Origin: Escherichia phage U1G | Sequence record: NC_070872.1 | Reading direction: 5' to 3' (one strand) | DNA: 64,000 nt | Part shown: positions 928 through 20,958 of the stretch, one piece after another | Numbering within the stretch: position 1 is the stretch's first letter | How the letters are laid out: each line of letters begins with the position of its first letter | Translations under genes and position numbers: made by a program | The notes under the pieces: generated by a model | What the model saw: the letters and a program-made list of their open reading frames with translations, nothing else | What the model was told of the DNA's origin: nothing | The model's database searches: none

Positions 928-1802
928 CGGGGCTTCATGAGAGTAATCTCATGTCGAAAGTTACCTAAACAGGGAACCTCTTCTAATCTGGTTGGCTCAG
1001 GTGTATACTTGAGTTTTAATCAATTGGAGACAATCCTGTGCTAAATAATGAAATTTGGAAAGATGTGCCCGACTTACCGTATGAAGTTTCCAACTTTGGC
1101 GTAGTACGCCGAAAAGAAGGAAAGTATAAATACAAAAATAGGACACACATAAAACCGTATCTTAATAACAAAGGGTACTACTGCGTGAACCTGTACATGA
1201 ATAGTAAAGTGTACAAATACCAAGTTCACCGTCTAGTAGGGTTAGCCTTTGTACCAAACCCTAATAACTATCCTATCGTTAATCATATAGATGGAAACCC
1301 TCTTAATAACCACGAGAGTAACCTGGAATGGTGTACCCAGTCTCACAACATGAAACATGCTTGGGATACTGGACTGCAATCAAACAGGCACGCTAATGCT
1401 AGTAATAAGAATCGTGGAGGCTCATCCAAATACGTAGGTGTATCCTGGAGTGAGCAAAGACAAAGATGGTGTGCCCATATAAGGGTTAACAAGAAATCTA
1501 TTGGTTTGGGGCGTTACAAAACAGAGGAAGAAGCTGCCAAAGCCTATGACTCCTATGTAACTAATAACAATCTTATACAGATTGGATACAGTACCAATTT
1601 CATTTAAACGCCAAACGACTATCGAAAACACGCAGCAATGCGGAAGTGAGTAGAGTAGGGTGCAAGCCAATGGCACTCGAAACGGTAACAGCCCTAGTAA
1701 TAGGGCTTTGATATAGTCTCCTCTGCATGGTGACATGCAGCAGTCAGTATTCACTGAGTGTACTGACGGCATTAGTAGTTGCGAACTAATGTGAAGATAA
1801 TG
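922..1802 (+). mobile_element. putative group I intron carrying an HNH endonuclease ORF, interrupting the ATPase gene
   Basis: Walker B split across the insertion; T at last 5' exon position (920) and G at 1802 fit group I splice rules and restore LLFL-DEFN in frame; structured-looking flanks; boundaries approximate. Confidence 0.4.
1038..1607 (+). CDS. HNH homing endonuclease with AP2 DNA-binding domain
   Basis: HNH_3-like NHIDGNPLNNHESNLEWCTQSHN and AP2-like YVGVSWSEQRQRWCAHIRVNKKSIGLGRYKTEEEAAKAYD; GTG start after GGAG. Confidence 0.7.
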   Translation: MLNNEIWKDVPDLPYEVSNFGVVRRKEGKYKYKNRTHIKPYLNNKGYYCVNLYMNSKVYKYQVHRLVGLAFVPNPNNYPIVNHIDGNPLNNHESNLEWCTQSHNMKHAWDTGLQSNRHANASNKNRGGSSKYVGVSWSEQRQRWCAHIRVNKKSIGLGRYKTEEEAAKAYDSYVTNNNLIQIGYSTNFI

Positions 1803-2541
1803 CGATGAGTTCAACTCAGCCAGAAAAGAAGTAGTAGCTGCTGCATATAAACTCATACTAGACCGTATGACTGGTCAGAAAAAACTTCATCCTAATGTGA
1901 TGATTATATGTGCTGGTAACAAAGCTACTGACCGAGCCATTGTTAACCCACTGGGTACTGCAATGCAGTCTCGTGTTGTCCACTTTGAAATGGAACTTAA
2001 CTTCGACATCTTTGTTGAAGACGTGATGATTCCATTTGAATGGGATGAGCGTCTGGTTGCATTCTTACATGCTAACCCGGGTTATCTGCATGACTTCGAC
2101 CCAGCACATAAGAACAAAACGTTCTGTTGTCCCCGTACCTGGGACTTTGTTAACAAAGACCTCAAGAACCGTCCTGAAGGTGCTCTACCTGACGAAGATT
2201 CTATCTACTACGCAGGGCACGTTACTGCTGGTAAGGCTACAGAGTTTGTTCAGTTTACACAGGTGTACAATCGTATGATTACGATTGAGAAGGTAGTCAA
2301 AGACCCTCTGGGCTGTGCACTACCGGAAGATAACAACCTGTGCTGGGCTACCGTTAACCATTTGGCTAATAAAACTACTGAAGAAAACTTCTCTGATGTT
2401 CTTCAGTACATTGAACGATTTAAAACGTTCACTCATAAGATTCTGTACTTCCGTACAGTAGGCAGAGCATTGCCAGAACTTCAGGCTACCCCTGAATGGC
2501 GTAAGGCTGCTTCCAATATCTCTCGTTACATTCACGGATAA
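1803..2541 (+). CDS. MoxR-like AAA+ ATPase, C-terminal part (exon 2)
   Basis: Frame open from 1801 reads DEFNSARKEVVAAAYKLILDRMTGQ...VMIICAGN (Walker B and sensor region); ORF track starts it at 1867. Confidence 0.6.
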
Positions 2542-2548
2542 TCACAAC

Positions 2549-3052
2549 ATGAACCAGATACCTCAGCACACACTTAGTGATGAACAACTCATGCGTGAGT
2601 ATGACCGTATTCAGGCGCAGGCATTTCTCGGACGTAGTGCAGCATTTTTTGGTTCATTACTGTGTAGTCTTAAGTTCTCATGGAAACGTGAAGACTGCCC
2701 CACTGCATGTACTGATGGAATAGAACTCCATTTCAACCCAGACTTCTTTATCTGGATGTGTCCAGATGCAAGAGAAACAGTGCTAATGCACGAACTCTGG
2801 CATGTGGCATATCTGCATGGCATCCGTCGTGGAAGCCGTGACCCAGAGGTCTGGAACCAGGCATGTGACCACTTCATTAATCTTCAGTTAGAAGAAGATG
2901 GATATAAGTTCACTGGTATCGACAAAGGCATTTGCAAAGACCCTCAATACAAAGGGTGGGTCGAAGAAGACATCTACGATGACCTGATGAAGAACCCTCA
3001 GAAAAGGCAGAAGCCGTCAGGGGTGCTGGAGCAGGTCTTGCTGGTGACATGA
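2549..3052 (+). CDS. VWA-partner protein, N-terminal metallopeptidase-like domain (HExxH, DUF2201-like)
   Basis: HELWH motif; directly downstream of the MoxR ATPase; probably one gene with 3049..3723 (frame break). Confidence 0.5.
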   Translation: MNQIPQHTLSDEQLMREYDRIQAQAFLGRSAAFFGSLLCSLKFSWKREDCPTACTDGIELHFNPDFFIWMCPDARETVLMHELWHVAYLHGIRRGSRDPEVWNQACDHFINLQLEEDGYKFTGIDKGICKDPQYKGWVEEDIYDDLMKNPQKRQKPSGVLEQVLLVT

Positions 3053-18772: not shown

Positions 18773-19074
18773 CTAAAAGTACGAAAGAAACCGTTGTCAG
18801 AAAATATCATTGGATGGTAGCAGCACAGGTAATCTTCCAGCTTCCCAAAGCTGATGATGGCTCTCTGCTTACCATGAACACAATGCTGCTCACTGATGAA
18901 CCTTACGTGACTTATAAAGATTTGGCTCGTGCCAATCACTCTCTGAAGATTAGTCTGGACCAGCGTTTTGATACCTCGGTTGACTTGAAAGACATCGTTT
19001 ATTTGTCTCTTAGCAACCTGGGTCTGATGTCTGAATCAAAGTTCCAGGCAAACATGATTCCCAAGGGGGAATAA
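18769..19074 (+). CDS. hypothetical protein
   Basis: 101-aa ORF, start overlaps the polymerase stop. Confidence 0.35.
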   Translation: MTKSTKETVVRKYHWMVAAQVIFQLPKADDGSLLTMNTMLLTDEPYVTYKDLARANHSLKISLDQRFDTSVDLKDIVYLSLSNLGLMSESKFQANMIPKGE

Positions 19075-19547
19075 TGACTAAGCTCTCCGGTGGATTGAAT
19101 AACTGGTATGTAGTACCAGTTAAGAACCCTCAACGGAAAGAGCAAGAGCCATACCAAGCAGAGTGTGAGGATATTATCCAGGCACTGGGCATGACCTTCG
19201 ATGAAGGTTGTGCCTTTAAAGCTCTATGGCGAAATGCTGCTGCCCGTATGGGTAATGGTAAACCTGGAAATACTCCAGTGTATGATTGTGAGAAGCTTGT
19301 TCATTATGCTAATCGACTACTTGCTAAAGCTTACTTTGATTCTAAGGATAGCGGTGAAGTAGTTAAGTTGGAAGAATCCAATACGGATTGGGTTTACAGT
19401 AATGAAAGACCATCCTTCATGCGTAAGTGGAAAAAGCTTGAGTATGAGTACAAAAACCATTGTACAACCTACACATGCTTTCCAGGGGAACCACAGCTAC
19501 TATCTATTAACTGGGCAGATATTTATCGTTATAGGATTACCTACTAA
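19074..19547 (+). CDS. hypothetical protein
   Basis: 157-aa ORF with overlapping stop/start. Confidence 0.35.
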   Translation: MTKLSGGLNNWYVVPVKNPQRKEQEPYQAECEDIIQALGMTFDEGCAFKALWRNAAARMGNGKPGNTPVYDCEKLVHYANRLLAKAYFDSKDSGEVVKLEESNTDWVYSNERPSFMRKWKKLEYEYKNHCTTYTCFPGEPQLLSINWADIYRYRITY

Positions 19548-20524
19548 TGAAGATAACCAACAACCATGATGTCTCATTGGCTTTGGCTGTATGGCTATTA
19601 CATGACGAATATGATTATGTAGACAATCCTAAGTATCTGTCTGTAACCACACTGCTTAAGCCACTTAAGCAAATCGTCATGAAACATCGTGTAGATCTTA
19701 GTGAGCAGTCTATTGACGTTATGGATTTCGTCTCCACATCAATGGGTACTGGCTTACATGATTCTATCGAAAAAGCCTGGAAGCTAGGCCATAAGACTGC
19801 ATTGAAGAAACTGGGTTATCCTCAGCGAGTCATTGATGCAGTAGTCATTAACCCAACCAAAGCAGACTTTGCTGCTAACCCAGACCTTATCCCAATCTAC
19901 ATTGAACAACGTGGAACCAGAGTAGTTAAGGGTTGGACTATCGGTGGTAAGTTCGACATCGTAACAGAAGGTCTGTTGCAAGACTTTAAGTCTACCTCAA
20001 CCTATTCCTGGGTTGCTGGTTCCCGTGATGATGAACACAAGATGCAAGGTAGCTTGTACCGTTGGATTCACAACGACATCATTACGGAGGATGTAATCCG
20101 TATTAACTACATCTTCACTGACTTCATGAAACACATGGCTAATAGCAATCCGAACTATCCTGCTAATCGTATTATGCATAAGGATATTCCGTTGTTATCT
20201 GTCGATAAGACTGAACGTTGGGTAGAAGAGAAGATACATCTCATTGAAAAGTACTGGGATGCTCCTGAAGAGGAAATTCCTGAATGTACTGACGAGGAGT
20301 TGTGGCGAACAGAGCCACAGTTTAAGTACTTTTCTGATGCTTCTAAGGTAGATGTACCTGGAGCCAGAAGTACCAAAAACTTTGACGATATGGCATCTGC
20401 TCGTATCTTCATGGCTGAAAAAGGTGGCAAGGGTGCTATCAAGGTCGTGGAGGGGCAGGTTAAAAGATGCCTGTACTGCCCTGTCGCGACCATTTGTGAA
20501 CAGAGGAAACGATATTACCCATGA
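19547..20524 (+). CDS. PD-(D/E)XK nuclease with C-terminal Cys cluster (Cas4/RecB-like exonuclease)
   Basis: GGKFDIVTEGLLQDFK core and C-terminal C...CxxCx5C cluster. Confidence 0.45.
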   Translation: MKITNNHDVSLALAVWLLHDEYDYVDNPKYLSVTTLLKPLKQIVMKHRVDLSEQSIDVMDFVSTSMGTGLHDSIEKAWKLGHKTALKKLGYPQRVIDAVVINPTKADFAANPDLIPIYIEQRGTRVVKGWTIGGKFDIVTEGLLQDFKSTSTYSWVAGSRDDEHKMQGSLYRWIHNDIITEDVIRINYIFTDFMKHMANSNPNYPANRIMHKDIPLLSVDKTERWVEEKIHLIEKYWDAPEEEIPECTDEELWRTEPQFKYFSDASKVDVPGARSTKNFDDMASARIFMAEKGGKGAIKVVEGQVKRCLYCPVATICEQRKRYYP

Positions 20525-20958
20525 AATTAATACCAATCGAGGTGTACCAACAGGCAGCTCTTGAGTTGTCTTACGATCCAGCCTCCCGTAGTTGCATACG
20601 GAAAAATGGTAAGGAAGTTGGAACCCTCGATGGTAGCGGTTACTGGTTAGTACGAGTAGGCAAGGGCAAAGGCACCTTACTAAAATGCCACCGAGTAGTA
20701 TGGTTCTTACATCATGGAACCGTGCCACCCCTCATAGAACACAAAGACAGAAATCCGTCGAATAACCTTATTACTAATTTAAGGGAAGCGACTGAATCGC
20801 AGAACAGATGTAATACCCCCAAGCACTGCGACAATACGTCTGGTGCTAAGGGTGTTTTCTGGTGCAAGTCCACCTCTAAGTGGATGGTTAAAGTCTGTGT
20901 TAACTATAAAACTTATTGGGGAGGCCGACACGCCGACCTGAAACTGCAATTGCAGTAG
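20521..20958 (+). CDS. HNH homing endonuclease with AP2 domain (free-standing)
   Basis: HRVVW...IEHKDRNPSNN...SQN and AP2-like GAKGVFWCKSTSKWMVKVCVNYKTYWGG. Confidence 0.7.
   Translation: MKLIPIEVYQQAALELSYDPASRSCIRKNGKEVGTLDGSGYWLVRVGKGKGTLLKCHRVVWFLHHGTVPPLIEHKDRNPSNNLITNLREATESQNRCNTPKHCDNTSGAKGVFWCKSTSKWMVKVCVNYKTYWGGRHADLKLQLQ

Follow-up and report, generated by a model that had tools for sequence, protein, structure and literature searches.

Homing endonucleases that join an N-terminal HNH nuclease to a C-terminal AP2 domain have been noted in phages, cyanobacteria and protists, and among them are the "IPA-HNH" homing endonuclease genes (HEGs) of Vibrio phage ICP1, which include free-standing copies at boundaries of genetic exchange (PMC10448857). 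The combination of nuclease and AP2 domain is an already recognised architecture of atypical HNH homing endonucleases (PMC10448857). Here we describe four genes of similar design, free-standing copies included, in a 64,000-nucleotide stretch of Escherichia phage U1G (sequence record NC_070872.1), which as a whole is termed "the window" below. Along the window they follow each other as H1 (1038..1607), H2 (13005..13502), H4 (17164..17820) and H3 (20521..20958), all of them, like the elements described at their insertion sites, on the plus strand. Very probably, these four HEGs, each encoding an HNH-type (beta-beta-alpha-metal) nuclease together with an AP2-type domain, have colonised the module for replication and nucleotide metabolism, and they spare their host genes in different ways. 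H1 would ride in a self-splicing intron within the Walker B codons of an ATPase gene, where splicing would restore the LFLDE motif; H2 would be tolerated in an intergenic gap between a terminator and the ribosome-binding site of a helicase gene; H4 would have been inserted without an intron upstream of motif A of the DNA polymerase, leaving two working polypeptides with short insertion-encoded extensions; and H3 would have been slotted exactly between an overlapping exonuclease stop and primase start.

The homing mechanism drawn on here is that of the established T4 and SPO1 systems. In a mixed infection, each enzyme would cut or nick the cognate empty site near its own insertion point in a related phage, and recombinational repair from the HEG-bearing genome would copy the endonuclease gene along with a flanking stretch of the donor, which would give rise to the observed patchwork. 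Essential enzyme genes reportedly also become fractured by endonuclease genes, as in the nrdA gene of Aeromonas phage Aeh1, said to be split by mobE, and in the split gp43 polymerases of some T4-like phages, where two translated pieces are said to reassemble. A precedent from the genus of U1G is the G7C-like phage 10Gb, the polymerase gene g39 of which holds an insertion of ~800 bp with a nuclease open reading frame (ORF); no spliced product was obtained by reverse transcription PCR (RT-PCR), two recombinant polypeptides had the sizes of the halves, and a Shine-Dalgarno (SD) sequence plus ATG precede the C-terminal half, in contrast to the RNA polymerase (RNAP2) gene g16, in which a spliced intron was found (bioRxiv 10.1101/542787). 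The same study lists 22 variable loci in G7C-like phages, many of them related to homing endonucleases (bioRxiv 10.1101/542787). The phenomenon is thus already known, and the four genes are a new instance of a well-known type of element in a genus whose mosaicism was described previously.

A first-pass annotation had called four HNH endonuclease genes within 20 kb, and exactly four ORFs of this kind are found where it had placed them, all within 1-21 kb; a scan of all six frames with profiles and phmmer found no fifth copy in the 64-kb window, including its other 43 kb. PHROGs label all four as HNH endonuclease: H2 and H3 match PHROG 99 best, H1 matches PHROG 59 with a lesser match to PHROG 99 ("HNH endonuclease"), and H4 matches PHROG 374 ("HNH endonuclease") at 2.9e-63. 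In Pfam, H1 exceeds each curated cut-off, with 37.3 bits for NUMOD4, 34.6 bits for HNH_3 and 40.1 bits for AP2. H2 reaches 55.9 bits for HNH_3 and a sub-threshold 17.6 bits for AP2, and H3 reaches 44.9 bits for HNH_3 and 15.9 bits for AP2, the latter confined to profile positions 3-35 of 54 (curated cut-offs: HNH_3, PF13392, 24.8 bits; AP2, PF00847, 33.3 bits). The residues of the H...N...N motif are intact in all three proteins. Of the proposed common HNH_3 plus AP2 architecture, therefore, the nuclease part holds throughout, whereas the AP2 domain is full in H1, sub-threshold in H2 and cut short in H3. Alignment confirmed that the three belong to one family of related, if distant, members (28-33% mutual identity, E 3e-9 to 9e-16), which, as had been proposed, occurs both intron-borne (H1, in a td-like group I intron identified in silico) and free-standing (H2 and H3).

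H4, which had been set apart as a different endonuclease, indeed falls into a separate family: even at E<=1, Pfam returned nothing meaningful for it, HNH_3 included, and the family to which it belongs spans 713 proteins at E<=1e-5 and 1153 phage records. Its members share the invariants CxCxCG, SCGC, RC and IDRxD-x4-Y-x-P-x-NCRW-x5-Q-x2-N, and H4 carries an arginine where HNH_3 enzymes have their first histidine. The difference is probably smaller than supposed, since H4 also has a predicted AP2-like C-terminal domain and a predicted PacI-like HNH fold. The AlphaFold model is confident (pLDDT 90.9); Foldseek found nothing significant with it, and the predicted fold resembles, at the level of a modest match, the HNH nuclease PacI (PDB 3m7k) plus an AP2 domain, PacI itself being a restriction enzyme without the latter. 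Judged from this model, H4 represents a family apart from H1-H3 that follows the same two-part logic of nuclease and AP2-type DNA binding. Some ICP1-type enzymes likewise escape the Pfam HNH_3 profile, a likeness to H4 by description rather than by sequence (PMC10448857); unlike the ICP1 HEGs, H1 has an extra NUMOD4 domain, and H4 has cysteine clusters and the arginine in place of the first histidine.

Positions 1-21000 were compared with phage genomes by megablast, which yielded 83 records, none identical to the window, among them ~57 close relatives (~80-95% identity per site). All of these close relatives are Gamaleyavirus (Schitoviridae), i.e., N4-like coliphages of the G7C, IME11 and ECBP1 group, and by its sequence the window too is that of a Gamaleyavirus, a G7C-like, N4-related E. 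coli podophage. Presence or absence varies at every one of the four sites. Among the Gamaleyavirus records, the ATPase intron is present in 1/57 and missing from 56/57, the polymerase insertion is found in 5/58 and H3 in 4/54, while H2 occurs at its site in 0/57 isolate records but in at least 24 metagenomic contigs. The first-pass annotation had named degenerate ORFs and sites identical in all relatives as signs against its view; the sites are polymorphic and three of the four ORFs show a third-codon-position bias, whereas H3 is truncated in the present assembly. The density that it had regarded as suggestive of active homing is real, with four genes in 20 kb, yet typical of the genus, as relatives have 3-5 annotated HNH genes in the same stretch, partly in other places.

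H1 lies within an 882-nt intron (921..1802) that interrupts the gene of an AAA+ ATPase. Exon 1 (607..920) ends with ...LLFL inside Walker B, exon 2 (1803..2541) begins with C GAT GAG, the ...DE of the same motif, and the intron-less allele of the relative UE-M6 is contiguous across this point. Compared with UE-M6, the insertion is clean (882 bp, 3 x 294) and lies between ...CTG TTC CTT and GAT GAG TTC..., i.e., at LFL|DE. The alignment places its boundaries at 922-1803; with a shift of 1 nt to 920|921 and 1802|1803, U becomes the last base of the exon and G (1802) the last base of the intron, with a synonymous CTC leucine codon at the junction. The exon sequence UCCU then pairs with the internal guide GGGG (P1). 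The predicted spliced ATPase comprises 350 aa and restores LFLDE. When its translation is aligned with that of UE-M6, 348 of 351 positions are identical, counting the stop, and the AAA domain that Pfam recognises at residues 31-146 (28.7 bits) crosses the junction.

At gathering thresholds, Rfam gave nothing over the whole window. A sensitive search over 1 kb recovered Intron_gpI as a weak hit with 23.7 bits (E 0.0012), aligned on GAUAUAGUC (P7) and on P9 elements. Without its ORF, the intron matches 605 phage records, including the T4 td intron directly downstream of I-TevI, the annotated intron of Dickeya phage LIMEstone1, SPO1-like phages and an ORF-less intron in the polymerase gene of PaoP5. 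The core is homologous by blastn to the group IA2 intron of T4 td, with identical P7 strands and a nearly identical P9 hairpin; both introns have the same P3-P9 order, loop out their ORF after P4/P6 and interrupt a phage gene within a conserved catalytic motif. They differ in the host gene (AAA+ ATPase, not thymidylate synthase) and in the endonuclease (NUMOD4-HNH_3-AP2, not GIY-YIG), and P5 is extended in the window. The helices P1, P2, P3, P4, P7, P7.1, P7.2, P8 and P9 were registered by hand in up to seven introns, and P6 was left out of the counts because it had no consistent registration across all of them. In these hand-registered helices, 304/305 cells are standard pairs and 33/49 positions show compensatory changes, which occur in P1, P2, P3, P4, P7.1, P7.2, P8 and P9, while P7 is invariant. 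From this in silico evidence we infer that the ATPase insertion is a td-like group IA intron that would be self-splicing.

The one close relative of this intron, in phage NAN33P5, differs at 7/312 non-coding positions (2.2%) and at 34/570 positions of the ORF (6%), the latter distributed as 5/2/27 over the three codon positions. On this comparison, both the ribozyme and the H1 protein look constrained. The SD sequence (GGAG, 1026-1029) and the GTG start codon (1038) of H1 lie within the 3' strands of P5 and P4, so that translation of H1 would be in competition with folding of the intron, a situation known from other intron ORFs.

Related introns occupy further positions of the same ATPase gene. 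Shigella phage pSb-1 carries a homologous intron ~120 nt upstream of the site in the window, at APEDL|SGLPF (about 1833-2706), and in NAN33P5 a further intron lies downstream, at CPR|TWDF, in addition to that in Walker B (about 3296-4178 and about 4511-5372 for the two introns). Across the genus, td-like introns are thus found at three positions of one gene. Every sibling intron obeys the rules of a U at position -1 and a terminal G, and the internal guide sequence co-varies with the exon, as the guides fit their own exons at the three sites (UCCU/GGGG, CCU/GGG and UCGU/GCGA); UCGU/GCGA pairs fully, and ACCU/GGGC of pSb-1 pairs in 3 of 4 positions. The ribozyme cores are ~77% identical, whereas the NUMOD4-HNH_3 endonucleases that each of these introns carries share a mutual identity of only 34-36%. 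Possibly, a single td-like group IA lineage was re-targeted to at least three positions of this one AAA+ ATPase gene within one genus, each time with a re-tuned guide and a divergent NUMOD4-HNH endonuclease, a scenario that we put forward tentatively and do not regard as the probable one. GenBank annotates the sibling-intron regions as separate small ORFs; in pSb-1, one of these is gp64, a probably spurious ORF on the reverse strand directly downstream of the ribozyme core. The closest relatives of the intron core outside the genus include an HNH-bearing intron of Vibrio phage F102 (about 640-1780), whose neighbour is a gene fragment with a portal protein annotation, and the ORF-less intron of Pseudomonas phage PaoP5 (about 1415-1665), whose DNA polymerase gene is annotated as two coding sequences. 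No paper was found on an ATPase intron in Gamaleyavirus or pSb-1, and the study of G7C-like phages does not mention it (0 occurrences of "ATPase"; bioRxiv 10.1101/542787). Both the ATPase intron of the window and its siblings, which occupy two further sites in that gene, appear to be unreported.

H2 is part of a block (12961..13527) that replaces 81 bp of HEG-less relatives between the genes of an NTP-pyrophosphohydrolase and a helicase. Within the block, just upstream of H2, lies a terminator-like hairpin with a T-rich tail (12971..12996; hairpin AGCCCCAGTAGGGGCT, 12971-12986), and HEG-less relatives have a different hairpin in its place. The 3' end of H2 covers the SD sequence (GGAGG) of the helicase gene and a TTG at 13492, which is aligned with the ATG of the relatives; ATG codons at 13450 and 13468 are other options for the start. 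Both neighbouring genes, the NTP-pyrophosphohydrolase gene in its last codons and the helicase gene in its first ~23, are diverged from their counterparts in the relatives, with which they remain homologous. The best H2 homologue in an isolate is 49% identical, the endonuclease that follows the ATPase gene in G7C. The metagenome and SRA contigs mentioned above, which are of Gamaleyavirus type, encode a 99%-identical protein at the same site, and a lineage whose DNA identity is only 78% has a 74%-identical protein at this site. All of the contigs that carry the 99%-identical H2 have an unsplit polymerase of 859 aa, and the insertion sites therefore assort independently.

H3 belongs to an insertion of 480 bp (20524..21003) at the junction of the exonuclease and primase genes. 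In HEG-less relatives, the exonuclease stop and the primase start overlap directly (ATGA), and in the window both junctions of the insertion are such ATGA overlaps, with CCATGA at each end. EC1-UPM and PGN829.1 hold an intact H3 (162 aa), in which HNH_3 is joined by an AP2 match of full length, and the corresponding reading in the window would end at 21004, overlapping the primase ATG. Unrelated endonuclease genes have a hot spot at the junction of exonuclease and primase, where UE-M6 and PBM-2 carry an HNH gene of different size. That of UE-M6 (22003-22518) encodes a different HNH_3 endonuclease of 171 aa, 35% identical to H3, with ATGA overlaps at both ends.

H4 resides in an insertion of ~843 bp (17090..17932) that splits the gene of the family A DNA polymerase immediately before motif A (GW.FCGLDFASLE), between ...KKCFEAPP and GW(L/I)FCGLDFASLEDR. 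The N-terminal piece (15353..17167) consists of polymerase core to 17089 (...FEAPP) and an insertion-encoded extension of 25 codons (17090-17164), and its TGA stop codon overlaps the ATG of H4 (ATGA). The C-terminal piece (17801..18772) may start at the ATG at 17801, which is 12 nt after AGGAG and overlaps the stop of H4; 44 insertion-encoded codons follow, to 17932, before the core resumes with GWLFCGLDF.... Each piece is therefore an ORF in its own right, with separate signals for stop and start, and the ATGA overlap as well as the SD sequence plus ATG are conserved in phi G17, ST4 and PGN829.1. These three phages account for all five records with the insertion, which is 99.9% identical in PGN829.1 and ~90-92% identical in phi G17 and ST4. 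Compared with the copy of phi G17, H4 shows 6/10/53 differences by codon position, and both polymerase extensions also vary mostly at third positions, although the counts are small. Most likely, the insertion is not an intron but has left a non-spliced gene in pieces; the presence of an endonuclease in the polymerase gene, noted in the first-pass annotation, stands. Like that of ~800 bp in 10Gb g39, it is a nuclease insertion with SD sequence and ATG in the same gene of the same genus, a comparison by description only. Compared with the reported cases of Aeh1 and gp43, the enzyme is a family A polymerase, the cut falls just before motif A, and the pieces bear insertion-encoded extensions of 25 and 44 aa.

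An Rfam search that detected the ATPase intron in the same window gave no signal over the polymerase insertion at E<=10 other than a chance sRNA match, and the core motifs common to the sibling introns are missing from the only ~185 nt that lie outside H4. It is improbable, then, that the insertion is an unrecognised self-splicing intron of group I or another type, from which RNA splicing would produce a single full-length polymerase, even though it is clean and in-frame (840 or 843 nt), preceded by a U and provided with a G at 17929. Intron-borne HNH genes are common in phage polymerase genes, as illustrated by PaoP5 with its ORF-less td-like intron in the polymerase gene, and intron-like predicted folds were seen by the authors of the preprint, whose experiments on 10Gb nonetheless gave two polypeptides and no spliced product (bioRxiv 10.1101/542787). 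The third-position bias of both extensions and the conserved translation signals also argue for two translated pieces. The order of gene half, endonuclease and gene half matches the layout that fractured genes are said to have, in which split-intein halves flank a free-standing endonuclease and protein trans-splicing would rejoin the polymerase. The N-terminal extension begins with S-C-Y-L, and ORFs of the H4 family occur inside a polymerase intein of Jerseyvirus. However, the extensions total only ~69 aa (25 + 44), compared with at least ~130 aa needed; a TxxH block and a terminal HN are absent, the residue after the C-terminal extension is Gly, not Cys, Ser or Thr, and the preprint reports two polypeptides of fragment size (bioRxiv 10.1101/542787). 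The sequence thus effectively refutes a split intein, which we regard as extremely improbable. An intein reading of the insertion as such was likewise rejected, as the Jerseyvirus intein that matches H4 is located at motif B rather than motif A, with the match in a different frame. In Salmonella phage vB_SenS_S532, an H4-family ORF (2501-3064; MDRID...GNYEPGNIRF) lies in the +2 frame inside the polymerase-intein region (CLHRH...VAHN|C, motif B), across which the polymerase is annotated as one reading in frame 0, and the endonuclease of the intein seems to be in another reading frame.

Whether the four genes still move is a separate matter from how they are accommodated. They could be relics or have been domesticated, as AP2 regulators or weapons against competitors, with ordinary recombination and loss accounting for their patchiness. 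The AP2 domains are DNA-binding modules, H4 is without the canonical catalytic histidine, H3 is truncated in the window, the same site can hold unrelated HNH genes, and purifying selection implies a function without saying which one. We consider this account unlikely, given that the insertions occupy classic homing targets (Walker B, polymerase motif A and gene junctions), that near-identical copies occur in genomes otherwise 90-93% identical (the polymerase insert at 99.9% in PGN829.1, H2 at 99% in many contigs), and that divergent tracts directly adjoin the inserts. The most pronounced of these tracts follows the polymerase insertion (17933..18250): it is only 66-73% identical to insert-less UE-M6, compared with 99-100% upstream and ~93-95% elsewhere, a pattern to be expected after co-conversion from a divergent donor. 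Lesser divergent tracts lie at 13501-13750 and 21001-21250. By their position and divergence, the tracts flanking the inserts look like co-conversion. In the comparison of 16790-18232 with ECBP1, Mimir124, F22, PW8 and ZQ2, some insert-less phages align over both polymerase flanks at only 82-88%, others at 90-93% but along a shorter stretch. The divergent tract downstream may therefore be present in some of the empty alleles, which would fit loss of the insert or the donor lineage. An independent split of the polymerase gene is seen in SP5M (2000-2542) and PD205, where a NUMOD4 plus HNH_3 endonuclease unrelated to H4 is inserted 30 codons downstream, on the other side of motif A.

Several points weigh against four mobile HEGs as the explanation of the locus. 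The divergence of the flanks could also stem from ordinary recombination with a distant relative, without an endonuclease; the insertion of 10Gb, likened to that in the window by description, may be a different element; the score of the ATPase intron is below the Rfam RF00028 gathering threshold of 50 bits, and the registration of its helices is manual. Finally, H3 is frameshifted in the window by the loss of one G at ~20940, which exchanges its last 22 residues, the AP2 helix included, for 5 others. This truncation is more likely a sequencing artefact than decay of the element, because five further window-only 1-bp deletions are found in homopolymer runs, at least three of which break genes that are intact in the relatives; for the same reason, reading it as decay was set aside as unsafe. 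All six deletions (3020, 5097, 12726, 12951, 20940 and 23546) are uncompensated, absent from every relative compared and located in homopolymer runs, and they look like under-calling in the assembly. The deletion at 3020 splits the gene of a VWA/metallopeptidase protein (2549-3052 and 3049-3723), those at 12726 and 12951 break the NTP-pyrophosphohydrolase gene, and that at 23546 splits the gene of a Sak4-like ATPase (23208-23609 and 23540-23959).

The four insertions are set in a gene order that the window shares with its relatives: ATPase, VWA protein, dCTP deaminase, ThyX, rIIA, rIIB and NTP-pyrophosphohydrolase, then Dda-like helicase, DNA polymerase A, exonuclease and primase. The window itself is mosaic, with a polymerase region 99.9-100% identical to PGN829.1 and other parts 90-95% identical to any isolate. 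Near ~28000 of the window, the GC skew switches from positive to negative.

HEGs are a driver of mosaicism in lytic phages as well as a marker for boundaries of genetic exchange, and the present findings leave the current understanding of homing unchanged. What the window adds is four solutions side by side in 20 kb: a ribozyme, a fractured gene, a position between genes and an exact fit into the overlap of two genes. In current Gamaleyavirus annotation, the ATPase and the polymerase are called as fragments and the intron is missed. The polymerase, with its two split sites 30 codons apart around motif A, offers a system for the reassembly of a split family A polymerase. The three intron sites of the ATPase gene, spread over near-identical genomes, make it a convenient system for intron re-targeting, and if these introns spread inside the genus as true siblings instead of having been imported separately, they would form a natural series on the joint change of intron and endonuclease specificity.

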